The position numbers were made by a program, and so were the translations under genes. Positions 19,686 through 58,731 of a stretch of DNA of 64,000 nucleotides are shown here, piece after piece. The notes under the pieces were generated by a model. The model saw only the letters and a list, made by a program, of their open reading frames with translations. It ran no database searches and was not told the origin of the DNA. Source of the stretch: an uncultured Bacilli bacterium (GTDB lineage: Bacteria > Bacillota_I > Bacilli_A > RF39 > UBA660); contig CANQIE010000002.1 in the NCBI GenBank assembly GCA_947623935.1, positions 2,481 through 66,480 of the forward strand, written 5' to 3'. Each line of letters begins with the position of its first letter. The stretch's first letter is position 1.

Positions 19686-20519
19686 TTAGGCTCCTACTGG
19701 TGCTTTATCAGCAGCATATACATTAAGTCTAACCGAGAAAGTTTTACCATTGGTTCCACGTTCACTTAATTTACAATCTTTACTTTCATCTGTCATAGAA
19801 GAAACGGTTGTATCATCTGTTATTTCACATTTACATTCAGCGTCTTTTCCATCCTTAGTACAAACATCATTAAACATATTTGTCTTAGTGTCATTAGAAG
19901 TAATGGATTCTGCACCTTTATCCTCATCATAATAATGATCAGAGAACCACATTTGGAAACGATAATAATGAGAATCTTGATTATTATCTTTATCATTTAA
20001 ATCAGCAGATTTAAATGTTCCACTATATAATTTCTTTTGTTTAGCATTTCCATTATATGTATCTAACTCATTAAAGAATTTAGCTTGAACTACATCTTCA
20101 TTATATGTTCCTTCCGTAGCACCTTTCTTTAAACAAAGTCTTACATATTTAGACTCTAATGTTTTTACTTTATCTGGATCCGTAGATTCCTCAACTACTA
20201 TATCATACGAAATATCCATATTTCCTTTAATAGTAGAAGTTACATTAAATTCAAAACTTTCATTTTTACTGTCTACAGCTTCATTCGATACTTGACTATC
20301 TGATATAGGCATCGCATTTGTTAATTCTATTCCTGCTGTTTCTTCATTATACTTAAATACTAACGTACCTGTACTAATGGTATTTTCAGTAGATCCTTGT
20401 CTTGAATAAGTAAAGAACGCAAATGACACTCCTATTACTGCTACTACTAAGATGGCTACGGCTAAAACAGATAATAATACTTGCCGTCCAGTATTATTCT
20501 TATTATTTTCCTCGTACAT
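19686..20519 (-). CDS. TasA/camelysin-like surface protein family, short member (no FGE-like domain)
   Basis: The N-terminus has a TM anchor and FAFFTYSRQGSTENTISTGTLVF, matching the SipW-cognate signal and TasA/Peptidase_M73 N-domain pattern (GTFAyFsD...NtfaaGTLdL). It ends FSVRLNVYAADKAP. Confidence 0.55.
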   Translation of the reverse strand: MYEENNKNNTGRQVLLSVLAVAILVVAVIGVSFAFFTYSRQGSTENTISTGTLVFKYNEETAGIELTNAMPISDSQVSNEAVDSKNESFEFNVTSTIKGNMDISYDIVVEESTDPDKVKTLESKYVRLCLKKGATEGTYNEDVVQAKFFNELDTYNGNAKQKKLYSGTFKSADLNDKDNNQDSHYYRFQMWFSDHYYDEDKGAESITSNDTKTNMFNDVCTKDGKDAECKCEITDDTTVSSMTDESKDCKLSERGTNGKTFSVRLNVYAADKAPVGA

Positions 20520-20539
20520 TTTTCTCATATCCTTTCTAT

Positions 20540-20590
20540 TATAATTAAATTATAATAAAGTTAACCCCCCCCCAGTCAAGCGATTTGACA
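20540..20590 (-). promoter_or_regulatory. sigma-A-like promoter with a G9 tract in the spacer (TTGACT-G9-ttaactt-TATTAT), upstream of 19686..20519
   Basis: Read from the sequence: C9 on the plus strand at 20565..20573, with -35 and -10 hexamers flanking it and a 16-bp spacer. Confidence 0.55.
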
Positions 20591-20738
20591 AAAATTAAAT
20601 GTGAATAATATGTAAATAAAATTTTGTCATATTAAGAAAGACAGAAATATAGTCAATGATATATTGAACTACTCTGTCTTTTTTAATATTTACTTATTAA
20701 ACTTTATTAGTCAATTTGTTTAATTGGTGGAATTAGTT

Positions 20739-22802
20739 TTATTTTTTAATAGGAGCAAGCACTAAGCGAAAAGAGGCTCCACATGCTCCACCATCAGTAT
20801 GTCCAAGATTAAAGATACCCGAAAGTCCGCCCCCGGAAGAACTACCACCACGGTTGAGCCATGGAGCAAACGTGTATACAAACATAGCTCTAGCTTTATG
20901 CCATCCAGCTGTCTCTGATAGGGCATGACCATAACATGCTTCCCCATCACATGCTGTTGCCATTTTTGTAGTATCATTTGTTGTATTGGTTGGATTATAT
21001 AAATCATAATATTTGGAAACTGGTAATTCTCTTCCCTCAGATACTGATTTTCCATCATTTAATAAACCATTAAATCCAGAATTAGAATCCATAGTCGCGC
21101 CACTTCTTGAGTTTCCACTATCATCTGCTAAAACACCCATGACAGAATCACCTGATCCACCACTCATATCATATACTCCTGTGATATTTCCTGTAGTAGA
21201 TGCTTTTTGACCTTTACTTGTTTCATAAGTATTTATGTCACAAGTATCAGCACTTTCTTCTGCTTTTGCAGAATCTCCCGCTATTCCTGTAATCTTTTTA
21301 GAACAATTGTTAATATATACTGCCTTTTCATCAATTCCATAAGCATCATTTCCATATTTTCCATACTTACTTTGAGATAAGTAGGCAACTGAAGCCCATT
21401 CACTACTCTTACTCATATGTGTATCATAACTGGTTTGACTACTAGAAAATCCATAAATATTATAATTTGTTGTTTGCATCCTTCTACTTACTTCAAAAGC
21501 AGTTGATACACGGATTCCCTTCCATGAAGTTACATTCGGTTTTATTTCTGGAGTATACGTTTCTTTATCACAGCCAGTATTTACTGAACCACTTGCTGCG
21601 ATACATTCTTCTTTACTACTTGGTTCAAACTTTGCAAACCATATCCCTGTTAATTCATCACTTCCAAAAGTAAAGGCTGGATGCATCTTGTAATTATTTC
21701 CATCACTTACTTGTTTATCTGTTCCTTCTATAAAGTTTATTTCAATTGCTCCTGGATTTTCATAACAATTAAATGGAGCGATTCCAGGTGATGTACAAGT
21801 TTCTGAATCTCCTTTTACATCATTTATGCTTACATAGTTGTATTCATATCTTGGGATCCATACCCACATCGTGTTGATATCATTCATATCAATTACTGTT
21901 CCTGGTTCTGCATCTTGATATTTCTTTCTTGTTGTTGCACTTACTCCATCCGCATCTAATCCTATCGTTACTGCATTCGCCCATTCTTGTATATCATAAT
22001 CATACCAGTCTTTATATAAGTCTGCTTTTCTCCATTCTCCATCTCTATAATAGACTGGTATTAATCCTTCCACTAAATCTGGTGAATTGGCTCCACTTGC
22101 ATCTTTGTATATTGCTGGTTCTCCTGGTTCTAATAATTCTCCATTTTGTGCATATACATTTACTCTTACAGAAAAACTCTTACCATTATACTTCCATGAC
22201 CCATTTACTACTTTATCTGCTTCTTCATCTATCCACATTCTAAACCGATACGTTTCACTATAATTCTCTTTTCCCGCTACTACCGTTCCTTGATATAAAG
22301 TCCTTCCTTCTTTTCCTTCTAATACAGGTACCTGACTCATTTTTAATTTATTATATAAATTAATGCCTTGACTATTAAGAGTATCGCTTACTGGCTCTTC
22401 ACTTTCTAATCCCTCTGTATTCGTTACTCTTGTTAAATAAGTTTTTACGGCATATTCTGGTAAAGTAGATCCCTCTTCTTTGGTTAGATAAATTTCATAA
22501 TTGATATCTGCTCCTTGTGTTGTTGCTTTGATATCAAAATCGAATACTCCTTCTCCTGTTTTATCTAATTTTGTTCCTTTATCATCACTTGTTGGAAATG
22601 CATTCGTTAAATTTACTCCATTCTTTTCTGCTCTTTTTTCATCATAAATAAATGTTAATGTTCCTGTATGTAATGTATTCTCTGTTGTTCCTTGTCTTGA
22701 ATACTGAAAGAAAGCAAAAGTTGTTCCTACTGTGATTAATACTAAGCTTAATACGAGTAGACATACAGCAATGAGTTCTTTTATATTTCTCTTTTTTTCC
22801 AT
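20739..22802 (-). CDS. TasA/camelysin-like N-domain plus FGE (SUMF1/EgtB/PvdO)-like C-domain surface protein, 687 aa
   Basis: The N-terminus is KELIAVCLLVLSLVLITVGTTFAFFQYSRQGTTENTLHTGTLTF. The C-terminal region carries EWASVAYLSQSKYG, GNITGVYDMSGGSGDS, CYGHALSETAGW, RGGSSSGGG and ...GASFRLVLAPI, in the same order as the FGE motifs (EWEYAARGG / GLYDMSGNVWEW / RGGSW / GFRCV). Confidence 0.6.
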   Translation of the reverse strand: MEKKRNIKELIAVCLLVLSLVLITVGTTFAFFQYSRQGTTENTLHTGTLTFIYDEKRAEKNGVNLTNAFPTSDDKGTKLDKTGEGVFDFDIKATTQGADINYEIYLTKEEGSTLPEYAVKTYLTRVTNTEGLESEEPVSDTLNSQGINLYNKLKMSQVPVLEGKEGRTLYQGTVVAGKENYSETYRFRMWIDEEADKVVNGSWKYNGKSFSVRVNVYAQNGELLEPGEPAIYKDASGANSPDLVEGLIPVYYRDGEWRKADLYKDWYDYDIQEWANAVTIGLDADGVSATTRKKYQDAEPGTVIDMNDINTMWVWIPRYEYNYVSINDVKGDSETCTSPGIAPFNCYENPGAIEINFIEGTDKQVSDGNNYKMHPAFTFGSDELTGIWFAKFEPSSKEECIAASGSVNTGCDKETYTPEIKPNVTSWKGIRVSTAFEVSRRMQTTNYNIYGFSSSQTSYDTHMSKSSEWASVAYLSQSKYGKYGNDAYGIDEKAVYINNCSKKITGIAGDSAKAEESADTCDINTYETSKGQKASTTGNITGVYDMSGGSGDSVMGVLADDSGNSRSGATMDSNSGFNGLLNDGKSVSEGRELPVSKYYDLYNPTNTTNDTTKMATACDGEACYGHALSETAGWHKARAMFVYTFAPWLNRGGSSSGGGLSGIFNLGHTDGGACGASFRLVLAPIKK

Positions 22803-22832
22803 ATTTTAATCTCTCCTTTATTATTTATCTAT

Positions 22833-22868
22833 TTCTATTATAAAACTACCCCCCCCCATGTCAACTTT
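22833..22868 (-). promoter_or_regulatory. promoter TTGACA-t-G9-tagttt-TATAAT with a 16-bp spacer
   Basis: C9 on the plus strand at 22849..22857. A canonical -35 and a perfect -10 sit 34 nt upstream of an AAAGGAGAG RBS and the start. Confidence 0.6.
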
Positions 22869-22914
22869 TGGTTAATTTTTTACACTTGAAATGTGAATTT
22901 TACAATTTTTGACA

Positions 22915-22942
22915 AAAGAAAAAAGCGTTAGCACGCTTTTTA
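22915..22942 (-). terminator. bidirectional terminator (AGCGT-tagc-ACGCT, A6 and T5 flanks)
   Basis: Overlaps the stop of the AI-2E transporter gene. Confidence 0.55.
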
Positions 22943-24001
22943 ATCCATAATATCATTTATTTTTTCTTTAATATCTTCTTCATAGAAATTATAAGCACAA
23001 CGAATCGTTATATAAATTGGGATCGCGGCAACGATTCCTAAAATGCCAAAGAAGGCACCACACACTGTAATCGAGAAGATAATAGCCACTGGATTTAAAT
23101 GATTCGTCTTACCATAAATCTTGGGCGAAATAATATAACCATCTACATTAGAGAATATCGCAGCAATCAAGACACTTCCGATTAAAACCGGAACAGAAAC
23201 AACCGATGCTGTAATAATTCCAATACAGTTACCAATAATACCACCGAAGTATGGAATGATAATTGAGATGGCCATGATAACCCCCATAATCATCCAGTTC
23301 GGATGTCCAATTAAACGGTACAATAGTGAATACTCTACTAAGGTTACCATCATGAGGATAAAGAAACCATGGAAATAGTTTCCAATCTCATGATCCAATT
23401 TCTGTACAAAATGCATATGACGTTTTGAAATACGAGAAAGAAATTTCTTAACACTCTCTCTAATCTTATCCATATCGAATAGCAAGTAAATTCCAACGAC
23501 CAAGGAAATGAAGAGATTACCAAGCACATTGAAACTTTTCCCTAAAATATCAATGGTACCTGTTGAAATATAAGTCCCCACTTGTTCAATTAACTTATTT
23601 AAGATATCAGCAATTTTGATTTGCATATCGCCAAGATTAATATCGAATCTCGTGGAAATATCTTGAATAAATTGTGATAAGGAACTAGCGAATAGAAGTA
23701 ATTGGTCATAAATCATTGGTAAAGTTAGCCATAGGATACCTACTACCACGACCATTAAGGTAACTAGGATAATGGCGATGGCTAAATTCTTTCGTACGCC
23801 TTTCTTCTCTAAGAATTTAACAAAAGGATCCAAGACGTAAGCAATGACAAAAGCAAGTAAGAATGGAAGCAATACATTGAATATTTTTAGTAGCCAACTT
23901 CCCCAATATTTGCTGGTATAGACAACAATACAAGCAAGAATGGCAACTAACAAGATATTAAGTAATTGATAATTGACTTTATTTTTATGCATATTTTTCA
24001 C
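22940..24001 (-). CDS. AI-2E family transporter (PerM/UPF0118)
   Basis: About 8 TM helices, with LLPFLLAFVIAYVLDPFV typical of this family. Confidence 0.75.
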   Translation of the reverse strand: MKNMHKNKVNYQLLNILLVAILACIVVYTSKYWGSWLLKIFNVLLPFLLAFVIAYVLDPFVKFLEKKGVRKNLAIAIILVTLMVVVVGILWLTLPMIYDQLLLFASSLSQFIQDISTRFDINLGDMQIKIADILNKLIEQVGTYISTGTIDILGKSFNVLGNLFISLVVGIYLLFDMDKIRESVKKFLSRISKRHMHFVQKLDHEIGNYFHGFFILMMVTLVEYSLLYRLIGHPNWMIMGVIMAISIIIPYFGGIIGNCIGIITASVVSVPVLIGSVLIAAIFSNVDGYIISPKIYGKTNHLNPVAIIFSITVCGAFFGILGIVAAIPIYITIRCAYNFYEEDIKEKINDIMD

Positions 24002-24432
24002 CTCTCTAAAATTATGGTAACAGGGCCATCATTGGTAAAGGATATTTTCATATCTGCACCAAAGATCCCCTTTTGAACAGGAACATACCTCTCTAGTTCC
24101 TGATTAAATAAATCGTACAACTTAGTTGCTTCTTTTCCATTTAAAGCTTGGATATAACTAGGTCTATTTCCTTTCCTTGTATCCGCATAAAGTGTAAACT
24201 GAGAAATGGATAAGATGCCTCCTTTGGTATCTAGCACCGAAAGATTCATTACACCTTTTTCATCATCGAAAATGCGTAAATTAATAATCTTTTGGACCAT
24301 TCCTTTAATCTTTTCAATATCGTCCCCTTCCGTAAATCCTACTAATAAAAGTAAACCATGATCTATTTTCCCCGTTATTTTTCCATCCACTTTACAAGAT
24401 GCTTCAAGGGATCTTTGTACAACTACTTTCAT
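23998..24432 (-). CDS. dtd: D-aminoacyl-tRNA deacylase
   Basis: MKVVVQRS... and the SQFTLYAD motif. Confidence 0.9.
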   Translation of the reverse strand: MKVVVQRSLEASCKVDGKITGKIDHGLLLLVGFTEGDDIEKIKGMVQKIINLRIFDDEKGVMNLSVLDTKGGILSISQFTLYADTRKGNRPSYIQALNGKEATKLYDLFNQELERYVPVQKGIFGADMKISFTNDGPVTIILER

Positions 24433-26576
24433 TAGTGAATAATCCTTTCTACATCCGTAATGTAACTTAATTTTCCTAAATCATTAAAAATACGGTTCAA
24501 ATGGTCTACATCACGAACTAAAATATCTAATTCGTATACGTTGGCATCACTTCGATTAATGGTAAGTGCTCGGTCGAAGGCAGCATCTTGCATACTGATG
24601 TGTTGCATGATTTCCATTAGGTTATTGTCGAGTGAATTCGAGTGAATCACAATCGATGTTAAATAACGCTTTTGCACTGTTTGATTCCATTTTACACTTA
24701 CAGTTCGATTTTCTAAACTTAGTAAATTATGACAATTGCTACGATGAACCGTGATTCCGTTTCCTTTCGTGATATAACCAATGATTTCATCTTGCGGAAT
24801 CGGATTACAACAAGAAGCTAAATTAACTTTGACTTTGTCAATGCCTTCCACGATGATGTCAGCATCTTCCACTTTAGCAACTACTTTTTTGATTTTGTCT
24901 TGGGTCTCATTCTTTTTATACAGAATATTTAATACCGTGTTGACTTGAAACTTACCATTGCCAATATTGAGTTCAATATCTTCAAGTGAGTCTACTTTTA
25001 ATTCTTTGATTAACTTTTCAATATTTTCATCGGTATAGAAATCACTATAACTAATTTTTCTTTTTCGAAGTTCCTTTTCAAGGCTGTCTTTGCCTCGTTC
25101 TATATGAACTTCTTTTTCACTTTTCGTAAAGAAAGAACGAATCTTGTTCTTTGTTTGCGAACATCTAGCAATCGATAGCCACTCTTTAGAAGGTCCTTTC
25201 GAATTTTTATTGGTATTGATTTTAACAATATCGTTATTTTGTAATTCGTAATCCAAAGGCACAATACTATTGTTGACAATGGCTCCTACCATAGTATCTC
25301 CTACTTTGGTATGAACACGGTATGCAAAATCGATGGGAGTGGCTCCTTTTGGTAGTTCAAAGACGTCTCCTTTAGGTGTGAACACATAGATACTATTTTC
25401 TTCCGACTCTTCTTTGATGGTATCAATCACTTCTTCACTATTTAGTTTATCGTTGGAAGAATCGATAATGGCTTTAAAGAACTGTAGCTTTTGTTCCGTT
25501 GTATTCTTAAATACTTCGGAAGCATTTTTATGTTCCTTGTAGGCCCAATGGGAAGCAATTCCGTTTTCCGCTACTTCATCCATGGCATGGGTTCGAATCT
25601 GAATTTCAAAAAGATAACCATCGACACCAAACACCGTGGTATGTAAAGACTGATACATGTTGGCTTTTGGCATTGCAATATAATCTTTGAATCGTTTTGG
25701 ATAAGGACGGTACTTCGAATGAATGAGTCCTAAGGCCATATAACATTCTTGTTCGGTATCGACAATAACACGAAGGGCAAAGAGATCATAAATATCACTA
25801 AACTTTTTCCCTTTATCCAATTTGTTATAGATACTGTAAATACTTTTAGCACGTCCCTTAATTTCATGTTTAATGTGGTGTTCTGTCAAAAGATTGCTGA
25901 CGCTTTCAAGCATTTCGTTTACGGTATTATCGCGTTCAAGTTTGGTATTATTTAACTTTTCTGCAATATCGTAAAAGACATCGGGTTTTAAATAACGAAG
26001 CGATAAGTCTTCAAGTTCACTTTTAATTTTATGAATTCCTAAGTGATGAGCAATTGGTGCTAAAATTTCTAACGTTTCTTTAGCCACCAATTTTTGCTTG
26101 TCTAGTGGAAGTGCATAAAGGGTCCGCATATTGTGAAGGCGTTCAGCTAATTTGATGATGATAACACGAACATCTTCACTCATTCCAACCACAATCTTTT
26201 TGTAGTATTCAATTAAATATTCGTTTTCGACGGAAAAGTTTAATTGTCCTAATTTGGTAACCCCGTATACGAGTTTTGCTACCTCAGGTCCAAACTTTTC
26301 TTCTACTTCTTCCCTAGTGGTATCCGTCTCTTCTAACACATCGTGTAAGAGTCCTGCTTTTATTGCTGTACTATCTGCATACACCGTTGTTAGAATGATG
26401 GCTACTTCTAGTGGATGGGTAATAAATGGTTCTTTATTCTTACGAAACTGTCCCTTGTGCTTTTCGTAAGCAAAATGGTACGCTTCTTCGATTTGTTTAA
26501 CTTCATCCTCTTCCTCGATGTAGGATCTAACACGTTTCAATAAATCATCAAACGTATGGACTTTCTCTTTACTCAT
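24432..26576 (-). CDS. relA: bifunctional (p)ppGpp synthetase/hydrolase RelA/SpoT
   Basis: HD domain (HPLEVA...LLHDVLEDT), synthetase domain, and TGS and ACT regions. The start is at MSKEK, which has an AGAGGTGA RBS. Confidence 0.9.
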   Translation of the reverse strand: MSKEKVHTFDDLLKRVRSYIEEEDEVKQIEEAYHFAYEKHKGQFRKNKEPFITHPLEVAIILTTVYADSTAIKAGLLHDVLEETDTTREEVEEKFGPEVAKLVYGVTKLGQLNFSVENEYLIEYYKKIVVGMSEDVRVIIIKLAERLHNMRTLYALPLDKQKLVAKETLEILAPIAHHLGIHKIKSELEDLSLRYLKPDVFYDIAEKLNNTKLERDNTVNEMLESVSNLLTEHHIKHEIKGRAKSIYSIYNKLDKGKKFSDIYDLFALRVIVDTEQECYMALGLIHSKYRPYPKRFKDYIAMPKANMYQSLHTTVFGVDGYLFEIQIRTHAMDEVAENGIASHWAYKEHKNASEVFKNTTEQKLQFFKAIIDSSNDKLNSEEVIDTIKEESEENSIYVFTPKGDVFELPKGATPIDFAYRVHTKVGDTMVGAIVNNSIVPLDYELQNNDIVKINTNKNSKGPSKEWLSIARCSQTKNKIRSFFTKSEKEVHIERGKDSLEKELRKRKISYSDFYTDENIEKLIKELKVDSLEDIELNIGNGKFQVNTVLNILYKKNETQDKIKKVVAKVEDADIIVEGIDKVKVNLASCCNPIPQDEIIGYITKGNGITVHRSNCHNLLSLENRTVSVKWNQTVQKRYLTSIVIHSNSLDNNLMEIMQHISMQDAAFDRALTINRSDANVYELDILVRDVDHLNRIFNDLGKLSYITDVERIIH

Positions 26577-26593
26577 AAATATCACCTCTTGTC

Positions 26594-30901: not shown

Positions 30902-32323
30902 TTAGGATCCTATAAGAGCAAGCACTAGCCGGAACGCGCCACCGATAGCCGGAGCGCCGGTGCTAGAGTTGAAGCTGAACACACCTGCGTGCGTACTATC
31001 ATCATAGTAGTCGCCACGAGTGGACCACGGTCTCGCAGAGCTTACATAAATATGATAATCTCCATACCAAGTTGAAGTTTCTGATAATGCATGACCGTAG
31101 CAAATTATTCCATTACATGCTTTTGCAACATCATTCCCACTATACGAATCATAATACTTAGCTTCTGGTATTTTGTTACCTTGAGCTTCGCCAGAAACAA
31201 ATCCAGATGATGCTACTATAATTGGTTTCCCTGAATTGCTACTATCTTCCAAAACACCCATTACTCTTTCCCAGGCATTACCACTCATATCATACACTCC
31301 TGTGATATTTCCTGTCGTAGATGCCTTTTGTCCTTGTAATGTATCATAGGTGTTTTTATTACAGGTGTTAGTACCCTTTCTTGCATTTGCCGCATCCCCT
31401 GCTATTCCTGTTATACAATTCGAACAGTTATTATTATATACTTCTTTGTCATTTTCTCCATAGGTGTCATTTCCATATTTTCCATACTTACTTTGAGATA
31501 AGTAGGCAACGGAACCCCATTCACTATCTTTACTCATATGCGTATCTATTTTTTCACCTTTAAATCCATAGGTTGATGCCTTTGTTGAATTCATACTTAA
31601 TGAAGCATAGAAAGCATTTGATATATTTATCCATCTCCATGATACTACTCCTGGTTTTATTACTGGAGTTAAATTCGAATTATTAGCAGGTCCATCATTA
31701 AATATTTGTTCTTCATTGCTTGTTTCAAACTTTCCATACCAGAATCCTGTTAATTCATCACTTCCAAAAGTAAAGGCTGGATGCATTTTATAATTATTTT
31801 CATCACTTACTTTGCTGCTTGTTCCATTGATAAAGTTGATTTCTATTTCTCCAGGTTTATTTATATTTTGTCCTATTGTTTCCATATTAGTATAGTTATA
31901 TTCATATCTTGGTATCCATACCCACATGGTATTAATGTCATCCATCTCTATTGGAGTATCTGGTACCGCTTTTTGATATGTTTCTCTTTGTTTAGTTCCG
32001 CCATCTTCATCTAATCCAATGGTTACAGCATTCGCCCATTCTTGATTACAGTAATTGTACCAATTGGCTGTGTTAGCATTCGCTTTCTTCCAGGTTCCTT
32101 CTTCATCAGAAATTGGAAAAGCATTCGTCAGACTTACTCCATTTTTGTCTTTTCTATTTTCATCATAAATAAAGGTTAATGTTCCTGATTCTAATTTATT
32201 TTCGATTTGTCCTTGTTTTGAATACTGAAAGAAAGCAAAGGTGGTTCCTATTGTAATTAAAATAAGACTCAATACAAGTAAACAAACTGCAACTAGTTCT
32301 TTCTTAGTCCTTTTCTCTTCCAT
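30902..32323 (-). CDS. TasA/camelysin-like plus FGE-like surface protein, 474-aa member
   Basis: Start at MEEKRTKKELVAV, which has an AAGGAG RBS. Carries TFAFFQYSKQGQIENKLESGTLTF and GNITGVYDMSGNAWERVMGVL (the closest match to FGE GLYDMSGNVWEW), and ends FRLVLALIGS. Confidence 0.6.
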   Translation of the reverse strand: MEEKRTKKELVAVCLLVLSLILITIGTTFAFFQYSKQGQIENKLESGTLTFIYDENRKDKNGVSLTNAFPISDEEGTWKKANANTANWYNYCNQEWANAVTIGLDEDGGTKQRETYQKAVPDTPIEMDDINTMWVWIPRYEYNYTNMETIGQNINKPGEIEINFINGTSSKVSDENNYKMHPAFTFGSDELTGFWYGKFETSNEEQIFNDGPANNSNLTPVIKPGVVSWRWINISNAFYASLSMNSTKASTYGFKGEKIDTHMSKDSEWGSVAYLSQSKYGKYGNDTYGENDKEVYNNNCSNCITGIAGDAANARKGTNTCNKNTYDTLQGQKASTTGNITGVYDMSGNAWERVMGVLEDSSNSGKPIIVASSGFVSGEAQGNKIPEAKYYDSYSGNDVAKACNGIICYGHALSETSTWYGDYHIYVSSARPWSTRGDYYDDSTHAGVFSFNSSTGAPAIGGAFRLVLALIGS

Positions 32324-32430
32324 AACTTCACTTCTCCTTTTATTATTTATAGTTTCCATTATAGTTTGTTTTTATTATTAAAACTTCAAAATTAACTAAA
32401 AAGAAACTGTTTTTATTCTATGTTTACAAT

Positions 32431-32463
32431 TTTATTATAAAACTACCCCCCCCCACGTCAACT
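32431..32463 (-). promoter_or_regulatory. promoter TTGACG-t-G9-tagttt-TATAAT
   Basis: C9 on the plus strand at 32446..32454. The roughly 100-nt conserved leader is shared with the 58589 gene. Confidence 0.55.
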
Positions 32464-32602
32464 TTTTGTTAACTTTTTACACTTGAAATGTACACTAAAT
32501 TTGCAGTGGTAAGCTAAAAGTAGACAATCAGAGGGGGTATGTAGACAAGCAATTATTTTATCTACGCAATTAAATTTTATAACATAAAAAAACGTATGCA
32601 AA

Positions 32603-32992
32603 TTACATACGTTGACTAAAATCGATCGCTGGTTTCTGGTTTGTTTTTCTTAAATCCATCACATCATAACTATTTTCTTTTAAGATATCCGCTTCTAAAA
32701 GACGTTCTTTCTTTTTACCAAGTCCAAAACTAATAAGCGATAAAAGAGCAAAAATAATAGGTCCATAGACAATAAAATAATTATCACTTTCAAAAGTTAA
32801 TCCATCTTTAATGACATAATAAATCGTAACGATATCAAATACAACTGTAACCAAACTAGTTAAAGCATAAAAGAAACGACATTTACGAATGCGTTTCGAT
32901 AAAGTATGAAAACAACGTAAAAGAATAGTTAAAGGAATTAAAGCAACAAAAACATAAATAAATACCATATAGTCATTTGGATTAATGTCCAT
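32603..32992 (-). CDS. hypothetical small membrane protein
   Basis: Three predicted TM segments. Confidence 0.4.
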   Translation of the reverse strand: MDINPNDYMVFIYVFVALIPLTILLRCFHTLSKRIRKCRFFYALTSLVTVVFDIVTIYYVIKDGLTFESDNYFIVYGPIIFALLSLISFGLGKKKERLLEADILKENSYDVMDLRKTNQKPAIDFSQRM

Positions 32993-36575: not shown

Positions 36576-36589
36576 AAAAAAGTCCAAAG

Positions 36590-36730
36590 GGGCGATGTTA
36601 TCAACGATAAAACCTGCACCCATGTACAGGTGGGTGTCCATACGTCACCTTTAGGATCCCTAATCACAAGTGAAAAGGTCTTCAACACCGGTAACTGATC
36701 CGGACTCCCGTATCGTTATTTTAGTCGGTT
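36590..36730 (-). ncRNA. candidate structured RNA or riboswitch-like leader; class not identified
   Basis: A locally GC-rich 140-nt segment with long-range complementarity (AACGATA at 36603-36609 pairs with TATCGTT at 36711-36717) and internal hairpins (CACCCA...TGGGTG). It is followed by the terminator and then the pilin-like gene. Confidence 0.3.
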
Positions 36731-36869
36731 TTATATTGGATAACAAACGAATCCCTTTAGACAATATTATTATATCATATCTCTTTTAAAAAATACTACT
36801 ATTTCTTCACTTTCTTTTTAAGATTGAACAAAGATCTTTTTTATTCATACACTATAATAGGTGAAAAAT

Positions 36870-51796: not shown

Positions 51797-51883
51797 TCAC
51801 TTCTTTTCTCGTAGTTTCTTAGCTAATAAATAATAATTAATATTTCCGGTTCTTTGGAATAATTCCCAAATAATTTTATCCAT
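51797..51883 (-). CDS. YqzL-like small protein (28 aa)
   Basis: MDKIIWELFQRTGNINYYLLAKKLREKK resembles Bacillus YqzL (...FSQTGNVETYLL...), which is encoded between era and recO. Below the cutoff of the ORF track. Confidence 0.4.
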   Translation of the reverse strand: MDKIIWELFQRTGNINYYLLAKKLREKK

Positions 51884-51924
51884 GATTTCACCTCTATTTT
51901 TATTTTGAGGGAAATCACTTATTT

Positions 51925-52806
51925 TTATTCTTCTTTTAAGCCAAACTCTTGTAAGTAATTTTCTTTATCACGCCAGTTTTCAATCGTTTTAACATACGTT
52001 TTTAAAAAGACTTTTTTACCTAAGTATTCTTCTAAATCAAGTCTTGCTTCTGTACCAATCTCTTTTAACATGCTGCCTTGTTTTCCAATAATAATTTTTT
52101 TTAAGTTATCACGGTCTACAATAATAACGACTCCAATTTCGATATAGTCTTCCTTATCTTCGTAAGACTCCACCATACAAGTCACGGCATGAGGAACTTC
52201 TTTATGCGTAAGACGAAGCACTTTTTCACGAACAATTTCACTGATATAGAAATAGTTGGAAATATTCGTAATGACATCGTCTTCATAGATTTTTTCATCA
52301 CTCGATAAATACTTTTGCACGACTTTAATGATTTCTTTAACATTATCTCCTTTTAAAGCCGAAATTGGAATAATATCTTCAAACGGATACAAATCTTTAT
52401 ATTCGTTAATTAAAGGAAGTAAATTTTCTTTTTTAACTCGATCCACTTTATTTAAAAGCAAAATCACTTTGGCATTACTTTCTTTTAAACGATTTAAGAT
52501 AAACTGATCTCCTTTTCCAAAGCCACTTTCAACATCGATTAAAAACAAAACGACATCGACTTCTTGCACACTTTGGTAGGCTTTTTTATTTAAAAGGGTC
52601 CCTAATTTATGCACTGGTTTATGAATACCAGGTGTATCGATAAAAACAATTTGACAATCATCATCCGTATAAATACCTTGAATACTATTTCTAGTCGTTT
52701 GAGCTTTATCGGAAGTAATCGCAATCTTGCTTTCTAAAAGAGCATTTAACAAGGTACTCTTTCCTACATTAGGACGCCCTACTAAACTAACAAATCCACT
52801 TCTCAT
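51925..52806 (-). CDS. era: GTPase Era
   Basis: GFVSLVGRPNVGKSTLLN, DTPG and NKVD motifs plus a KH domain. Confidence 0.9.
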   Translation of the reverse strand: MRSGFVSLVGRPNVGKSTLLNALLESKIAITSDKAQTTRNSIQGIYTDDDCQIVFIDTPGIHKPVHKLGTLLNKKAYQSVQEVDVVLFLIDVESGFGKGDQFILNRLKESNAKVILLLNKVDRVKKENLLPLINEYKDLYPFEDIIPISALKGDNVKEIIKVVQKYLSSDEKIYEDDVITNISNYFYISEIVREKVLRLTHKEVPHAVTCMVESYEDKEDYIEIGVVIIVDRDNLKKIIIGKQGSMLKEIGTEARLDLEEYLGKKVFLKTYVKTIENWRDKENYLQEFGLKEE

Positions 52807-53195
52807 TTTAAATCCTCACTGGCAAAGGGATAAGGGCACAATTCTTTGATGGTTAAATGCTTTTCAAGTCCTGTATTACTATATAAGATAACTTCCTTAT
52901 CTGCTTCAAAAAACTCAACGAGCACTTGTCTACAAAGAAAACAAGGGGTACTAATTTGGTCTTTATCGATCATGACATAGAGTTTTTCAAAGTCTCCTTT
53001 ACGATAACCCTCCGAGACCGCCTTAGCGATGGCTACCCGCTCTGCACAAATGGTAGCTCCGTAACTAGCGTTTTCAATGTTGACACCCGTATAACTTGTT
53101 CCATCTTTCATAACGACTATACTTGCCACTCTAAAATTAGAATATGGAGCATAACTTTTGGTTAATAAATTTTTTAATTCTTCTTTTTCTTTCAT
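52803..53195 (-). CDS. cdd: cytidine deaminase
   Basis: CAERVAI and PCFLCRQVL zinc-binding motifs. The start is at MKEKEEL, which has an AGGAGAG RBS. Confidence 0.85.
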   Translation of the reverse strand: MKEKEELKNLLTKSYAPYSNFRVASIVVMKDGTSYTGVNIENASYGATICAERVAIAKAVSEGYRKGDFEKLYVMIDKDQISTPCFLCRQVLVEFFEADKEVILYSNTGLEKHLTIKELCPYPFASEDLK

Positions 53196-53203
53196 AAACT
53201 CTC

Positions 53204-53623
53204 CTAAAACAACATCAATATTTTGGGAATAAAGATGATACAACCTCCCACAAAAGCAGTGATGGAACAAAGTAACGTTGCAGTCGAAGCCGTATCTTTG
53301 GCAATTCTTGCTAGAGGATGTATCTGAGGCATAGCAAGATCTATCGTTGCTTCAATCGCCGTATTAATCATTTCACTTGCAGCAGTCATTCCGATTACCA
53401 AAATACAAAACAACCATTCCATCGTCGATAAATTAAAATAAAAACCCGCAATAATAACTAATATAGCAGCCACCACAATAATAATCATATTGTGTTCTTC
53501 TCTTACCGCATAAACAAAGCCATCAATAGCATGAAAAAAACTCTTTTTATATCGAACCATCGGGGTTCCGGTATCTTTAATACGTATTATTTTTCTTTTT
53601 CTAAAGCGATCGAGTAATCCCAT
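53204..53623 (-). CDS. dgkA: diacylglycerol/undecaprenol kinase
   Basis: Three TM helices and the NTAIEATID..HPLA motif. The true start may be the internal MVRY (53560). Confidence 0.75.
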   Translation of the reverse strand: MGLLDRFRKRKIIRIKDTGTPMVRYKKSFFHAIDGFVYAVREEHNMIIIVVAAILVIIAGFYFNLSTMEWLFCILVIGMTAASEMINTAIEATIDLAMPQIHPLARIAKDTASTATLLCSITAFVGGCIIFIPKILMLF

Positions 53624-54053
53624 ATTTTGATAATACCTCCTCTTGTTTTTGAAACATCACTTCTTCATCCCTTTTCTCTTCGTGATTATAGCCTAGTAAA
53701 TGAAGTAAGCCATGAACGGCTAAAAAAGAAATCTCGCGTTTGAAGGAATGTCCATAACTTTCAGCTTGTTCTTTTGCCTTATCAACCGAAATATAAATAT
53801 CTCCTAGAATCCGTACTTCCATTTTAATATCCAAATTATCTTCTAAAGCAAAACTGATGACATCGGTTTCTCTATCGATACCACGATATGCCTTATTAAT
53901 CTCATGTATTTTTTTGTTATCCACTAAAATCACATTGCATTCCGCTTTTTTAACTTTTTCTAATTTTAAAGCGTATTTGAGGATTTTTTTTAAATCTTTT
54001 TCTACTTTCGAAAAATCTTCACTTGTTTCATTAAACACATATACCCGGTTCAT
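53601..54053 (-). CDS. ybeY: rRNA maturation endoribonuclease YbeY
   Basis: HGLLHLLGYNHE zinc motif. Confidence 0.85.
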   Translation of the reverse strand: MNRVYVFNETSEDFSKVEKDLKKILKYALKLEKVKKAECNVILVDNKKIHEINKAYRGIDRETDVISFALEDNLDIKMEVRILGDIYISVDKAKEQAESYGHSFKREISFLAVHGLLHLLGYNHEEKRDEEVMFQKQEEVLSKYGITRSL

Positions 54054-54679
54054 TATACCACCATCCTATAAATATAAACTATAAATACGACGACTATTAC
54101 TATCGCTACACAGTTTAAAAAGCCTTCTTTTTTCATGACTTCTGGTAACCTAGATCGAATTTTGTTTAGTACATAATAACTGAGGTATCCAAGAAGTCCT
54201 CCTAGAATATTTAAAAGAATATCGTCAATATCAAAAATACGTCCAATCATTTTTTGAGTAACCTCAATAACAATGGAGGTAAACATTGTTATAAGAAGTA
54301 ATAAATACGGTTTATCTAGTTTTAAATAATAGGACATAAAGAAACCAAAGGGAACAAAAAGAAGCAAATTCCCTACAACTTGTTTATAGAATAATCTACT
54401 TCCAAAAGAATACCTAAAGATTTCTCTAAAGGGAATAAAATTACTTCCTTCTTTAAAATTTGAAACATCTTGAAAAGTAACTACTTGGAAGAGACATAAT
54501 ATATAAATTAAAAAGAATAAAGCCAAAAGTTCACGGTAGAGAACAAATGGTTTTTTATTCTTTACTAAATATATAATTCGAAGTATTGATAGGGTTAAGG
54601 TTGTGACTAAAATCATAGGCCAAGTATAAGATACAACTCCACGGATCGTATAATTTAACTGATTAATGGATTGTACCAT
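54053..54679 (-). CDS. VanZ-family membrane protein
   Basis: FIPFREI...LLLFVPFGFF...NILGGLLGY pattern. Confidence 0.55.
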   Translation of the reverse strand: MVQSINQLNYTIRGVVSYTWPMILVTTLTLSILRIIYLVKNKKPFVLYRELLALFFLIYILCLFQVVTFQDVSNFKEGSNFIPFREIFRYSFGSRLFYKQVVGNLLLFVPFGFFMSYYLKLDKPYLLLLITMFTSIVIEVTQKMIGRIFDIDDILLNILGGLLGYLSYYVLNKIRSRLPEVMKKEGFLNCVAIVIVVVFIVYIYRMVV

Positions 54680-54690
54680 ACTTTTCGCCT

Positions 54691-55860
54691 CTATTCTTTT
54701 TTATCTTTATTCATATCAGTTGGGGTAAGTTTTTGATATGCGGTAATGTCTTCCTCCACCTTTAAAAATACTTCTACTATTATTTTACTATCTTCTTCTG
54801 TAATTTTCAAATCTTTTTGAAAGAGGATACGATCGTTTTCACCTAAACTGGATAAAAGTTTTTCACTAGCTCTCTTTTTAGCTTCTTCAATGGCCTCTTC
54901 TTTGGTGTAATGTTGATCAATTACCTCGAGTTCTTCTTCTATTACCCAATCGATGGATAAAGGAAATAAACTGTTCTTAATTAATGCTTTTTCTTCCCTC
55001 TTTTTATCTTTATACGGTTTAAAATCAAAAAGAGAGAAATGATGATTTAAAAAGGTAATTCCTAGTAATTGTTTTTTATTCCCTGTCTTTTTCTCTTCGT
55101 GATAACTTAATGGCATTGAAACGGTTACTTTATACCACGTCTCCGCCATGACTGTACCGGTAGATGCTACATATTCTTTTACTTCTTCTTTATTGTGAAT
55201 AGCTCCTGTAATTAAAAGATCTCCTTTTTTTACATATTGATTCTTTTTAGCCACTATTTCACCCTTAGAAGACTCAATCTTGGTAATTAATCCATCTTTC
55301 TTAGCCACAATATCTCTTATCTCTAAAGGTTCTTCTTCCTTATTTAGTTTACGTTCCTCAACTCTTACTATGTATTTGGTTCCCACTCGTTCAATCTCAA
55401 TCCACTCTAAAGTATCTTTATGTTTCTCTAAGATCTCTTCTCTTATTTTTTCCTTTTTCTCAAAAGAAATACAAAAATGTAATCGTTTTATACCATAATT
55501 ATCTAACTCTTCATATAATAAATCTCTTATTTCTTTTTTCGTATGAACGACTTCTACATCAAAAATAATATTGGAAAGGAACAAAAGTAAAAACAACCCC
55601 ACGATTAAAGAAATAAAAAAGAACTTTTTCTTCTTTATTTCTTCTGTAACTGCCTTTATTCCTTTTATTTTAACTAATTTAATTTCGTAAATCGTTTTGA
55701 TATCTATCAAACGTTCATAATTTTTCTCATCAACCCATACTTCTAAATAATCATTTTCTTCTTTTACTTGTAAAAACTCTAAATGCATTTTTACTAACGA
55801 TAAGAAAAAACGATGAGGATTTTTTCCTTCTATTCGCACTAAATATTTATTATTCAACAT
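54691..55860 (-). CDS. YqfD-like (stage IV sporulation protein-like) protein
   Basis: 389 aa with a single TM. Sits in the position of Bacillus yqfD, upstream of ybeY, dgkA, cdd and era. Sequence similarity is weak. Confidence 0.45.
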   Translation of the reverse strand: MLNNKYLVRIEGKNPHRFFLSLVKMHLEFLQVKEENDYLEVWVDEKNYERLIDIKTIYEIKLVKIKGIKAVTEEIKKKKFFFISLIVGLFLLLFLSNIIFDVEVVHTKKEIRDLLYEELDNYGIKRLHFCISFEKKEKIREEILEKHKDTLEWIEIERVGTKYIVRVEERKLNKEEEPLEIRDIVAKKDGLITKIESSKGEIVAKKNQYVKKGDLLITGAIHNKEEVKEYVASTGTVMAETWYKVTVSMPLSYHEEKKTGNKKQLLGITFLNHHFSLFDFKPYKDKKREEKALIKNSLFPLSIDWVIEEELEVIDQHYTKEEAIEEAKKRASEKLLSSLGENDRILFQKDLKITEEDSKIIVEVFLKVEEDITAYQKLTPTDMNKDKKE

Positions 55861-55861
55861 G

Positions 55862-56113
55862 TTATCCTCCTAACTCAATGGATTTAATTTTCCCCGAGAT
55901 TAAGATTTCTTGATCTAATAATTTTTGAATAGAAAGATTTTCTCCTTTTATAATCATGAGTCCTAAATCACATCTTAAAGAAATACGTGCCTCTTCTAAT
56001 ACTAAAACTTCTAAGTAATTAACGACATTTAATTTTTCATTTTGATAACTAAAGTGAAAGACATTATCTATACAGTAATCTCTTATTTCTCTAAACATAG
56101 TCTCACCTATCAA
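55862..56113 (-). CDS. YqfC-like small protein
   Basis: 83 aa. Lies in the position of yqfC. The LxIxGxxL pattern resembles YqfC. Confidence 0.45.
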   Translation of the reverse strand: MIGETMFREIRDYCIDNVFHFSYQNEKLNVVNYLEVLVLEEARISLRCDLGLMIIKGENLSIQKLLDQEILISGKIKSIELGG

Positions 56114-56194
56114 AGTATATGTAAAGAAGCCTTAACTTAGAAAAAGAAAAGCATAACCATTTCTCATTTTTTCATTTCTTTCACCAAAGAAAAA

Positions 56195-56236
56195 ACAGTA
56201 CAAACAACATGTACTGTTCTTTCCATAGCCTCTAAT
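56195..56236 (-). terminator. rho-independent terminator (AACAGTACA-aacaaca-TGTACTGTT, T-rich 3' tail on the minus strand)
   Basis: 9-bp perfect stem downstream of the family gene and orphan fragment. Confidence 0.5.
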
Positions 56237-56387
56237 ATTCAGGAAATATCCCTTACTAACTAGAAAACTACTGTTAATGTTTTTATTCATCAATTTTTGA
56301 TGAAAAGGAATTTATCTTCGATGATAAATCTTCAAAAAAAGTCCTTGAACTCTTTTGTCGAAGAAATGCTTCTCGCATTATATATCA

Positions 56388-56535
56388 TAGTCTAGGCGCA
56401 AGAACGAGGCGGAACGAGTTGTTGCTGTTCGCATTGCCATTGTTGTTGTTGAAGTTGAACACCCCAGCATTCGTGCCATCATTATAGTTGCCGCCGCGTT
56501 TGAACCACGGGTTCGTAGAGCAAAAGAGAATACTA
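56388..56535 (-). pseudogene. orphan 3'-terminal fragment (about 50 codons, no start) of the TasA/FGE-like family
   Basis: Translates to ...TNPWFKRGGNYNDGTNAGVFNFNNNNGNANSNNSFRLVLAPRL-stop. Its DNA is clearly similar to the 3' end of the upstream gene at 56646..56760 (CTAGGCGCAAGAACGAGGCGGAACGAG versus ATAGGCGTAAGAACGAGCCGGAACGAG; GCCGCGTTTGAACCACGGGTTCGTAGAGC versus GCCGCGTTCGAACCACGGGTACGCAGAGTC). Confidence 0.55.
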
Positions 56536-56645
56536 CGTGCGCAAAAAAGGAAAAAACGTGAGAGATTTGATATAGATAAATTCCTGACCCACCCCTGGAA
56601 AAAAAAGAGGGGGTGGGCGCGGTTAAAAGTGAACGAGTAAGTCGC

Positions 56646-58589
56646 TTACGCTCCTATAGGCGTAAGAACGAGCCGGAACGAGTGAGTGCTGTGAGGCTCG
56701 CCATTCAAGACACCGAACCAGAACACCCCAGAAGACCTCCCATCATACCAGACAGCGCCGCGTTCGAACCACGGGTACGCAGAGTCTACAAATGAATGAT
56801 CATCTCCATACCATCCTGCGGTTTCGGATAAGGCGTGTCCGTAACATTCTCCATTTGTTGTACATGAGGTGGCTAGATTTGTTGTATATACATCATAATA
56901 CTTGGCATCTGGTAATTTATTACTATCATTACCTCCGTCAACAAATCCAGAAAATTTTATTGTTGGCTTACCATTTCCATCATTCAAAGCGCCCATGACA
57001 TATTCATATGCTCCACCACTCATATCGTAGACTCCTGTGATATTTCCTGTAGTAGAAGCTTTTTGACCATCAGTTGATTCATAAGTTTGACTACATGCTG
57101 CCACTCCTGTTGTATAACTACTACAACTATTTATTGTTACCTCTTTACTATTTTCATCATATGTTTCATTTCCGTATTTTCCATAAATACTTTGTGATAA
57201 GTAGGCTACTGCTCCCCATTCACTATTCTTACTCATGTGGGTATCTATGCTTCCATCACTACTGAATCCATATTTTGGTGCATTTGCTGCTGTTGTCATA
57301 TTTAATGCTGCATAAAACATATTTACTACTTTTACATTTCTCCATGATGTTGTATTTGGTTTTATAATCGGTGTTAAAGTTGAACTATCTGTTGTATATT
57401 GTTTTTCTTCATTACTAGTCTCAAATTTTCCATACCAGAATCCATCTAATTCTGTTCCACCAAAACTAAACGCTGGATGTACTTTATAATTGTCTGTATC
57501 TGCTGAAGTTACTTCTTTACTTATAAATTTTATATTTATTGCTCCTGGTTTTGTAGCAGTTCCTCCTGCATAACTTGCAATACTTACAGAATCATATTCG
57601 TATCTTGGTATCCATACCCACATTGTGTTGATATCTTCTGCAAGTATTTCTTCACCTGCTTCAGCACTTATATAATTTGCTCTTTTAGCATCGGTTACTG
57701 TTACTGCATTGGCCCACTTTTGCTTTGTATAATCGTACCAATCACTACTACTTGCTTTTTCCCATCTTTGGTCTACATCATCATATACTACAGGTACCAT
57801 TCCTGTTACTAGCTTTGGTACACTTGCTCCACTTGAATCTTGTGGTTTAGCATATGGATCGTCTCCTCCTGGTTCTACTTCTTCTTGTGGTTCAGTTGGA
57901 TCAGGAATTGCTTCATTTTGTGCATATACATTTACTTTTACAGAGAATGTCATATTGTTGTAAATCCATGCTCCATTTTCTACTTGATTAGCTTCTTCAG
58001 CAATCCACATTCTATATCTAAAATGCTTTTCATAATTGCTTTCACCATTTGCTATAGTTTCTCTATATAATGTTTTTGCAGCTGTATCTTCATCTTCTAA
58101 TATACTTGGTACTTTACTATCCCATAGAGCATTATATAGATTTAGATTTGTTTCTGTTGGTAATCCTGTTGTTTCCGGAGCACTTTCTATATCACTGCTT
58201 AAAGTAGTTAGATACGTCTTTACTACTTTCTCTGGTAACTCGCTTCTTTCATCTGTAGGAGCTACTTTTGTTAAATAGATTTCATAATGAATTGCTGCTC
58301 CTTCGGTCTTTGCTCTTACATCAAAATCAAAGACTCCGCTTTTATCTTTGTCTAGTGCTTCACCATCTTCATCACTCATAGGGAAAGCATTCATTAAAGA
58401 TACTCCTCCTGCACTACTTTTACTTTCATCATAAACAAAAGTTAATGTTCCTGTTTGAATCTTATTCTCGGTAGCTCCTTGTCTTGAATAATTAAAAAAG
58501 GCAAACGTTGCTCCTACCGTGATTAAGACTAAACTGAACACAAGTAGGCTTACTGCTATTAGTTCTTTCTTATTTCTTTTTTCTTTCAT
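56646..58589 (-). CDS. TasA/camelysin-like plus FGE-like surface protein, 648-aa member
   Basis: Start at MKEKRNKKELIAVSLLV, which has an AAAGGAG RBS. Carries TFAFFNYSRQGATENKIQTGTLTF, EWGAVAYLSQSIYGKYG and GNITGVYDMSGGAYEYVMGAL, and ends SFRLVLTPIGA. Confidence 0.6.
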   Translation of the reverse strand: MKEKRNKKELIAVSLLVFSLVLITVGATFAFFNYSRQGATENKIQTGTLTFVYDESKSSAGGVSLMNAFPMSDEDGEALDKDKSGVFDFDVRAKTEGAAIHYEIYLTKVAPTDERSELPEKVVKTYLTTLSSDIESAPETTGLPTETNLNLYNALWDSKVPSILEDEDTAAKTLYRETIANGESNYEKHFRYRMWIAEEANQVENGAWIYNNMTFSVKVNVYAQNEAIPDPTEPQEEVEPGGDDPYAKPQDSSGASVPKLVTGMVPVVYDDVDQRWEKASSSDWYDYTKQKWANAVTVTDAKRANYISAEAGEEILAEDINTMWVWIPRYEYDSVSIASYAGGTATKPGAINIKFISKEVTSADTDNYKVHPAFSFGGTELDGFWYGKFETSNEEKQYTTDSSTLTPIIKPNTTSWRNVKVVNMFYAALNMTTAANAPKYGFSSDGSIDTHMSKNSEWGAVAYLSQSIYGKYGNETYDENSKEVTINSCSSYTTGVAACSQTYESTDGQKASTTGNITGVYDMSGGAYEYVMGALNDGNGKPTIKFSGFVDGGNDSNKLPDAKYYDVYTTNLATSCTTNGECYGHALSETAGWYGDDHSFVDSAYPWFERGAVWYDGRSSGVFWFGVLNGEPHSTHSFRLVLTPIGA

Positions 58590-58698
58590 AATTTCTTCTA
58601 CTCCTTTTATATTTATTATTTTCATTATAGAGTCTTTTTATAATAAAAACTTCAAAGTTAACTAAAAAGAAACTTTTTTTCTTTCTATGTTTACATTT

Positions 58699-58731
58699 TT
58701 ATTATAAAATTGCCCCCCCCCATGTCAACTT
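58699..58731 (-). promoter_or_regulatory. promoter TTGACA-t-G9-caattt-TATAAT
   Basis: C9 on the plus strand at 58713..58721. The roughly 100-nt leader is conserved with the 32323 gene. Confidence 0.55.

Follow-up and report, generated by a model that had tools for sequence, protein, structure and literature searches.

Promoter-spacer poly-G tracts as a candidate phase-variation system for a surface-protein family of uncultured gut Bacilli

Why does a genome of low GC content hold four pure runs of nine G, each inside the promoter of a different member of one family of paralogous genes? The question is raised by a 64-kb stretch of DNA from an uncultured Bacilli bacterium (contig CANQIE010000002.1 of assembly GCA_947623935.1; positions below refer to this stretch, hereafter the window, unless a locus handle is given), whose GC content runs between 28 and 36% along its length and whose four paralogs encode putative surface proteins. 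Here, we examine the tracts, their promoters and their relatives in public assemblies, and conclude, with a probability of about 0.75, that slipped-strand changes in the length of the promoter-spacer poly-G tune each paralog independently, heritably and reversibly. The mechanism itself is already known; the lineage and the gene family are newly seen with it.

The four tracts read as C9 on the plus strand and as G9 on the strand of the genes (20565-20573, 22849-22857, 32446-32454 and 58713-58721, here sites 1 to 4), in agreement with a preliminary description of the window that had singled them out as a possible switch. They lie far outside chance expectation. C8 matches number eight in the window, two per tract, against 0.23 expected, and none of 100 dinucleotide shuffles reached eight, while extrapolation from the decay of run lengths predicts about 0.006 C9 runs in 64 kb where four are found. 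On the plus strand the counts of C runs fall from 7403 at length one through 1685, 236 and 49 to seven at length five; lengths six to eight are empty, and length nine holds four. The longest plus-strand G run is five and the longest A or T run is eight. With no further G/C run of six or more in the 64 kb, the description was right both that nine-nucleotide C or G runs are nearly impossible at about 30% GC and that no similar homopolymer occurs elsewhere in the window. As pure G9 tracts, all four are long enough to be potentially hypermutable, which for a G/C homopolymer means about eight or more.

Each tract is enclosed by a TTGAC(A/T/G) -35 box and a TATAAT-like -10 box, as had been described, and the flanking hexamers score 10 to 12 out of 12 against consensus (Table 1). 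A repeat between these boxes is in a position to alter expression, and at sites 2 to 4 the spacing, read from sequence only, is an unambiguous 16 bp. The same spacing had been claimed for site 1, where it is less secure: 16 bp requires TATTAT as the -10 box, whereas a perfect TATAAT sits at 19 bp. Site 1 is also the weaker promoter and the most diverged copy of the promoter cassette set out below.

An intrinsic terminator of the preceding gene is found 60-130 nt upstream of each of sites 2, 3 and 4, so that no driver other than these promoters is evident for the genes behind them; between site 1 and the upstream 687-aa gene, the search detected no terminator. The window contains only three other matches to TTGACN-N15-19-TATAAT, whose spacers measure 16, 16 and 17 bp. 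Since 16-bp spacers are in ordinary use in this organism, G9 is likelier to be an expressed state than an OFF state. We read the G9 promoters as probably expressed, at an intermediate or ON level and not OFF.

Table 1. Positions of promoters, terminators and paralogous genes in the window, and of tracts in coding and leader positions at related loci.
Feature	Position	Strand	Details
Site 1 promoter	20549..20579	-	-35 TTGACT 20579-20574; G9 20573-20565; TTAACTT; -10 TATTAT 20557-20552 (spacer 16 bp; 10/12 consensus) or TATAAT 20554-20549 (spacer 19 bp)
Site 2 promoter	22837..22864	-	-35 TTGACA 22864-22859; T 22858; G9 22857-22849; TAGTTT; -10 TATAAT 22842-22837; spacer 16 bp; 12/12 consensus
Site 3 promoter	32434..32461	-	-35 TTGACG 32461-32456; T; G9 32454-32446; TAGTTT; -10 TATAAT 32439-32434; spacer 16 bp; 11/12 consensus
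Site 4 promoter	58701..58728	-	-35 TTGACA 58728-58723; T; G9 58721-58713; CAATTT; -10 TATAAT 58706-58701; spacer 16 bp; 12/12 consensus
Intrinsic terminator, gene upstream of site 2	22920..22941	-	
Intrinsic terminator, upstream 129-aa gene (before site 3)	32591..32613	-	
Intrinsic terminator after rpmA (ribosomal protein L27)	58786..58806	-	directly upstream of site 4
280-aa short paralog	19686-20528	-	consists of just the N-terminal and TasA-like part; translation likely begins at the second ATG, 3 codons further on
687-aa paralog	20739-22802	-	N-terminal membrane anchor with FAFFQYSRQG motif, TasA-like domain, C-terminal FGE/C-type-lectin-like domain
485-aa open reading frame	30902-32359	-	without the middle domain; 5' untranslated region about 105 nt
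659-aa paralog	56646-58625	-	protein whose structure was modelled
Coding tracts	L052:1256-1330; L053:22-100; L065:1419-1500; L066:501-580; L046:2469-2540; L058:2455-2530		
Leader tracts (G9-G11)	L076:2330-2470 (also 4296-, 6269-); L070:283-, 2330-; L073:767-; L021:27-; L056:2416-; L080:2794-		tract in a leader open reading frame

In the mechanism that we favour, each paralog would be transcribed from its own sigma-A-type promoter, in which the poly-G repeat takes up most of the -35/-10 spacer. Slipped-strand mispairing during replication would add or remove a G and shift the spacer among 15 bp (G8), 16 bp (G9) and 17 bp (G10). Promoter strength at a given locus would then change heritably, reversibly and independently of the other loci, and a population would hold a combinatorial mix of expression levels across the family. 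We infer that slippage would be frequent within a clone and that transcription would differ between G8, G9 and G10. The preliminary description had offered either an ON/OFF switch or a rheostat; the length variants and placements reported below support phase variation, but strict ON/OFF switching fits less well, 16 bp being the spacing of other promoters in the window, and graded tuning over 15, 16 and 17 bp is probably the better description for this species.

The four tracts share an origin. We aligned 15 promoters, comprising the four of the window, three of other paralogs from the same samples and eight from the sister metagenome-assembled genome (MAG) CANRHM, and recovered a cassette of the form AAAAATTAACAAAAAGTTGACAT-Gn-TAGTTTTATAATAGAAATAGATAAATAATAAGGAG that is conserved from about -55 to +30, as far as the ribosome-binding site. 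Upstream of about -55 the DNA is unalignable, and the proteins behind the cassette copies are only 31-63% identical. Because the cassette is common to all, the window tracts represent one invention duplicated with the genes and not four independent events; the alignment is best read as a single promoter cassette copied along with its genes. Across the 15 copies the G run is uninterrupted in every one despite the divergence of the proteins, which argues for selection maintaining the tract.

A single homologous cassette would also be expected if the tracts were passive passengers, that is, if an ancestral promoter with a chance G9 had spread by duplication or conversion and the tract were unselected and without a role in expression; a 52-nt patch of differences within the 485-aa gene, described below, hints at conversion between paralogs of this kind. 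We consider such passive spread very unlikely. A neutral nine-nucleotide run would have decayed, as an interrupted tract in a related species (L034, below) illustrates, whereas none of the 15 tracts is broken at this level of protein identity and with upstream DNA that can no longer be aligned, and tracts recur at three kinds of expression-critical position across species.

Tract length differs both between strains and between paralogs. The preliminary description had proposed a comparison of lengths among strains and MAGs, and this comparison, for which we retrieved other assemblies via look-ups through neighbouring conserved proteins, returned variants at each level; all tract lengths are assembly consensus calls at about 10x coverage. 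At site 3, the orthologous promoter has G9 in the window and ERZ27249187 (L088) and G10, with a 17-bp spacer, in ERZ27249651 (L087). Apart from this G9/G10 indel, the only differences between L087 and the window over 3.39 kb are nine substitutions, which all cluster in a 52-nt patch within the gene. Site 4 is G9 in ERZ27249187 (L001/L082) and in a Logan contig of ERR10663778 (L083), and site 2 is G9 in ERZ27249187 and ERZ27249657. Three further paralogs on contigs of the same samples, at similar coverage (about 10-11x), carry G9 (L099 and L102) and G8 (L100, the P0016 promoter), and in the sister MAG CANRHM the same cassette occurs eight times, six with G9 and two with G8. Spacers of 15, 16 and 17 bp (G8, G9 and G10) are all natural in this cassette, 16 bp predominating, and the polymorphism occurs with conserved flanks, in what is a small sample of consensus calls.

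Coverage of the remaining promoters was uneven. The 687-aa and 280-aa products and P0013 were looked up as exact proteins and none is on record, and the look-up via the YgjP-like neighbour led only to a contig starting inside the 280-aa gene, so site 1 is without a second assembly for comparison. Other assemblies (L084-L086, L090/L091 and L095) end at or before the promoter, and a pattern scan of JGI metagenomes for the cassette with a variable tract returned one unrelated chance match (L092) and no strain-level data.

The substitution patch that separates L087 from the window (31718-31769 in the minus-strand gene 30902-32359, against L087:2724-2775) encodes the conserved HPAFTFG...GKFE motif, and resembles what brief conversion by another paralog, or a switch from one paralog to another during assembly, would leave behind. 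An origin through a diversity-generating retroelement (DGR) was rejected: the nine changes are not specific to adenine, they fall in a motif that the paralogs conserve, and no template repeat was found.

Several contigs begin or end at or beside a tract or the start of a paralog (L101:1-8, L077:1-11, the ends of L090/L091 and the end of L085), and the contig of the other sample that corresponds to L100 begins exactly at the tract. Such breaks may reflect length heterogeneity or repeat collapse. Contig ends that coincide exactly with the tract, as in L101 and L077, could also be produced by a sequencing or assembly artefact, such as two-colour Illumina poly-G or misassembly. As an account of the tracts themselves this is extremely improbable, because they are internal to long contigs, read the same in ENA, NCBI and Logan assemblies made independently for different studies and hosts, and always stand in the same promoter context on the gene strand.

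The tracts extend well beyond this population. A wider survey covered 81 loci (477 kb), made up of 80 homolog loci from species-representative genomes and L001, whose contig is identical to the window. It contained 35 G runs of at least eight, each of them at the 5' end of a family gene and on the strand of that gene: two G8, twenty G9, nine G10 and four G11, one of the G9 runs being L001's copy of window site 4. These tracts belong to about a dozen related gut Bacilli MAGs and fall into three placements; many family genes of more distant MAGs are without a tract.

The first placement is promoter-like, as in the window. The distance from TTGAC to TATAAT is 20 bp in CANQDB (L006, L007, L009, L011 and L013), 14 and 18-19 bp in CALVRU (L008, L010 and L041) and 21-22 bp in CANQHK (L024 and L030). 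In one of these loci (L013:889-3007) a 433-aa group II intron-type reverse transcriptase open reading frame (ORF; 1572-2873, with a YADD motif) lies between the G9 promoter (889-897) and the start of the family gene (3007). The second placement, with six cases, is within the first 10 codons of the gene, where the tract is in frame in L053 (G11) and L058 (G9) and out of frame in L046 (G9), L052 (G10), L065 (G9) and L066 (G10). The proteins of L052, L053, L065 and L066 have a prepilin-type FTLIELL N-terminus and not the FAFF motif of the window. This mixture of in-frame and out-of-frame coding tracts is the classic signature of translational phase variation.

In the third placement the tract occupies a short leader ORF with a Shine-Dalgarno sequence of its own. 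Downstream of this ORF come a strong terminator hairpin and an anti-Shine-Dalgarno helix that covers the ribosome-binding site of the main gene. The L076 leader folds at -31 kcal/mol (z -5.5), and the hairpin is kept in seven of seven sequences, including a compensatory C-G to U-A change. Two frames of the leader ORF stop after 16-19 codons, while the third runs for 30-34 codons and reaches the hairpin; in L021 and L076, read by hand, this long frame stops in the hairpin loop. All nine observed leader copies are in a short frame. The combination of leader ORF and terminator may constitute a phase-variable attenuator. To our knowledge no phase-variable attenuator of this leader-ORF kind has been described, and the design is the part of the system likeliest to be new.

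The 18 nt directly 5' of the tract match between L021 (ATTTACAAAAAGTTAACC) and the window-type cassette (ATTAACAAAAAGTTGACA) at 15 positions, a likeness which points to a common ancestry of the promoter and leader modules and suggests that one of the two versions gave rise to the other. That the window copies themselves carry the terminator/leader device of their relatives was rejected, since folding of the long 5' untranslated regions (UTRs) of sites 3 and 4 gave no consistent structure (z -0.8 and -2.65). An Rfam scan of the window likewise found no family overlapping the 5' UTRs of the paralogs. A wider picture can be drawn from the three placements, that of a lineage-wide poly-G "phasome" in uncultured gut Bacilli, among them sporulation-gene carriers such as the window organism, in which a large TasA-like and C-type-lectin-fold surface family would be switched by one G8-G11 module in three interchangeable positions (the promoter spacer, the first codons, or a 16-34-codon leader ORF of which one frame carries the ribosome into the terminator/anti-Shine-Dalgarno structure). 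We offer it tentatively, as an idea whose chances we put at somewhat below even.

Several of these results weigh against promoter tuning by slippage. The promoter-like distances of 14-22 bp in distant species are several steps from the 17-bp optimum, so that a simple spacer-optimum model fails to generalise, and no alternative hexamers were found that would account for the spacers of 14 bp and of 19-22 bp in CALVRU, CANQDB and CANQHK. The site 3 difference between G9 and G10 is one consensus difference at about 10x and could be a homopolymer error. Most of the other same-strain assemblies, including those that match sites 2 and 4, are 100% identical to the window and so possibly not independent of it. 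A fixed-length element would also produce the uniformity of the window, where every tract is G9, and the strong predominance of G9 in two more species. Finally, the promoter of a CANQDB paralog (L034:2943-2951) has an interrupted tract, GGGGTGGGG, with the total length and flanks of its G9 siblings, which looks like a decayed or "locked" tract; such tracts are rare.

The unusual distances would be accommodated if the tract set the spacing or helical phase between an upstream activator site (a TTAAC-N5-GTTGAC repeat) and the -10 box, as in Bordetella fim, making phase variation activator-dependent. Distances of 14-22 bp are incompatible with a plain -35/-10 promoter; the direct repeat (A/G)TTAAC AAAAA GTTGAC, with a period of about 11 bp, is kept 5' of the tract in 13 of the 15 cassettes; and a similar 5' flank is present even where the tract sits in a leader ORF, as in L021. 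We nevertheless hold activator-dependent spacing to be unlikely. The window hexamers are perfect consensus at 16 bp and need no activator, none of the four loci has a linked regulator gene, and the A-rich stretch could be merely an UP-like element.

The predominance of G9 bears on another alternative, in which the run is a promoter element of fixed length, either the site of a G-tract-specific regulator or a rigid GC block that confers supercoiling sensitivity, and G8 and G10 are incidental mutations or errors. Such an element would account for G9 at all four window sites, in six of seven paralogs of this population, in six of eight CANRHM copies and in five of five from CANQDB, despite their differing spacer geometry, and for the retention of total length in the interrupted L034 tract. 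It is improbable for several reasons: G8-G11 tracts with mixed frames also lie inside coding sequences and leader ORFs, where promoter binding is impossible, lengths range from 8 to 11 overall, and a pure homopolymer is the least stable encoding of a site of fixed length. Mutational bias alone, moreover, is proposed to yield the modal G9 of Campylobacter jejuni (PMC3401435). Slippage within the promoter spacer remains our preferred explanation for the window.

The genes behind the tracts belong, as had been described, to a single protein family. Searching the window with tblastn revealed no family copy beyond the four paralogs, which are 31-56% identical and have in common a charged N-terminus, a membrane helix and the motif FAFFxYSRQGxTEN...TGTL. 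A C-terminal domain of about 400 aa is common to three of them, the 280-aa protein being the one without it. In the 485-aa and 659-aa ORFs (32323-32359 and 58589-58625, minus strand) a second ATG (32323 and 58589) stands 9-10 nt downstream of a Shine-Dalgarno sequence, AAAGGAG, that is itself within the first 12 codons, and both products probably start 12 residues later than the ORF suggests; public gene callers give 473 aa for the 485-aa ORF but keep 659 aa for the other.

The family is a large one: databases contain more than 5000 relatives, a few of which have Peptidase_M73/camelysin, ASH or Ig-like domains. Pfam and NCBIfam searches gave no significant match for any of the four window proteins, and a PDB sequence search with these proteins and the family alignment gave no match. 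One of 15 aligned relatives matched PF12389 (TasA/camelysin, Peptidase_M73; 1.1e-5). PF03781 (FGE-sulfatase) scored 17.7 bits on the 485-aa paralog, below its cutoff of 23.3, and reached E 0.05 or better in four of 15 relatives, the best at 0.002. As sequence searches yielded no usable family assignment, the fold was taken from a structural model.

An AlphaFold model of the 659-aa protein, built from a 55-sequence alignment, had a mean predicted local distance difference test score (pLDDT) of 79 and exceeded 90 through most of the C-terminal domain. In Foldseek this domain matched the DGR variable protein TaqVP (5vf4), of C-type-lectin/FGE fold, at E 4e-8 and probability 1.0, and according to the model the conserved C-terminal domain appears to have an FGE/C-type-lectin-like fold. 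The N-terminal domain gave a weaker match to the TasA fibre 8aur_A (E 2.6e-3, probability 0.97, template modelling score 0.37 on the target), in a model that is of low confidence over residues 43-95. The label TasA-like, which the preliminary description had applied to the proteins as such, thus appears weakly defensible for the N-terminal part, where fold similarity exists, but does not extend to the lectin-like C-terminal domain and has no Pfam match behind it. With an N-terminal anchor and these fold matches, the products look surface-exposed and are candidate adhesins or fibre subunits, secreted or membrane-anchored. No cognate SipW-type signal peptidase was found near the paralogs in the window, and one could lie elsewhere in the genome. 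Linkage to SipW within the window was rejected, the sole S26 peptidase there (14997-15509) being of the ordinary bacterial type (TIGR02227, 161.6 bits; TIGR02228, SipW/archaeal, 26.4 against a cutoff of 51.85).

In public databases the closest genomes are MAGs recovered from the guts of rabbit, mouse, chicken and human, which carry the labels "uncultured Bacilli", "Tenericutes" or "Mycoplasma sp.", of which the latter two labels look like misclassified small-genome Bacilli. The window contains the sporulation genes yabP and yqfD (54691-56113, minus strand). The sole Rfam family above threshold in the window is a 6S RNA (RF00013, 52.2 bits; 36577-36766, minus strand). A 412-aa large serine recombinase (11117-12355, minus strand; CcrB/XisF-like, well below equivalog cutoffs) adjoins an ORF resembling family-4 uracil-DNA glycosylases (12804-13460), and this locus may mark the edge of an integrated element.

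The proposed mechanism has several precedents. In Mycoplasma hyorhinis, the paralogous vlp surface-lipoprotein genes each have a promoter with poly-A between the -35 and -10 boxes, and independent slippage produces combinatorial ON/OFF expression. The parallel is a homopolymer in the own promoter spacer of each surface-protein paralog, in a host that is also a low-GC relative. The differences are that the homopolymer here is poly-G in a genome of about 32% GC, that the proteins are unrelated (TasA-like and C-type-lectin-fold against lipoproteins) and that the host is presumably walled, since the sporulation genes YabP and YqfD are present. At porA and opc of Neisseria meningitidis and hif of Haemophilus influenzae, changes in a repeat within the -35/-10 spacer give graded ("volume control") or ON/OFF transcription, the same logic as that of the 15-, 16- and 17-bp spacers here; unlike the dispersed family with one cassette in the window, however, these are single loci in Gram-negative pathogens, and the hif repeat is a TA dinucleotide. 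The poly-C promoters of Bordetella pertussis fim2 and fim3 (about 13-15 C), in which the tract spaces the BvgA activator site from the -10 box, likewise place a G/C homopolymer before paralogous fibre-subunit genes, but the tract is shorter here and no activator has been identified.

The closest numerical parallel is with C. jejuni, a gut bacterium of about 30% GC that carries some 30 poly-G/C contingency loci with a modal tract length of nine (Bayliss et al. 2012, PMC3401435). Its G8 tracts mutate mainly by insertion and its G11 tracts mainly by deletion, and the mode has been ascribed to this mutational pattern and not to selection (PMC3401435). Both cases involve a genome of about 30% GC, G/C runs of at least eight that are essentially confined to contingency loci, surface structures and the gut; the length spectrum here (8 to 11, mode nine) is the same, and a mode set by mutational pattern would explain why most copies here read G9. 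Most C. jejuni tracts are intragenic, and the species is not known to have MutS/MutL mismatch repair. The window tracts differ from them in lying all in promoter spacers and all serving one paralog family.

The preliminary description held that, as far as known, such a system had not been described for TasA-like proteins or for this kind of organism, and our literature search agrees: it turned up no earlier account in this lineage, in this protein family or in Bacilli with sporulation genes, nor of poly-G promoter switches in Bacilli or Firmicutes, although its coverage was incomplete and the absence is weak evidence. Phase variation by simple sequence repeats is known mainly from a few cultured pathogens, among them Neisseria, Haemophilus, Campylobacter, Helicobacter and Mycoplasma. 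The same strategy appears here in uncultured gut Bacilli, where it would act on a large and fast-diverging family of putative adhesins or fibre proteins. If this is true, annotation pipelines for MAGs would mis-call many such genes as pseudogenes or fragment assemblies at these loci, and tract lengths in reads would become a simple metagenomic measure of population heterogeneity in situ. It would also mean that the surfaces of abundant but unstudied gut bacteria undergo stochastic variation, perhaps directed against immunity or phage.

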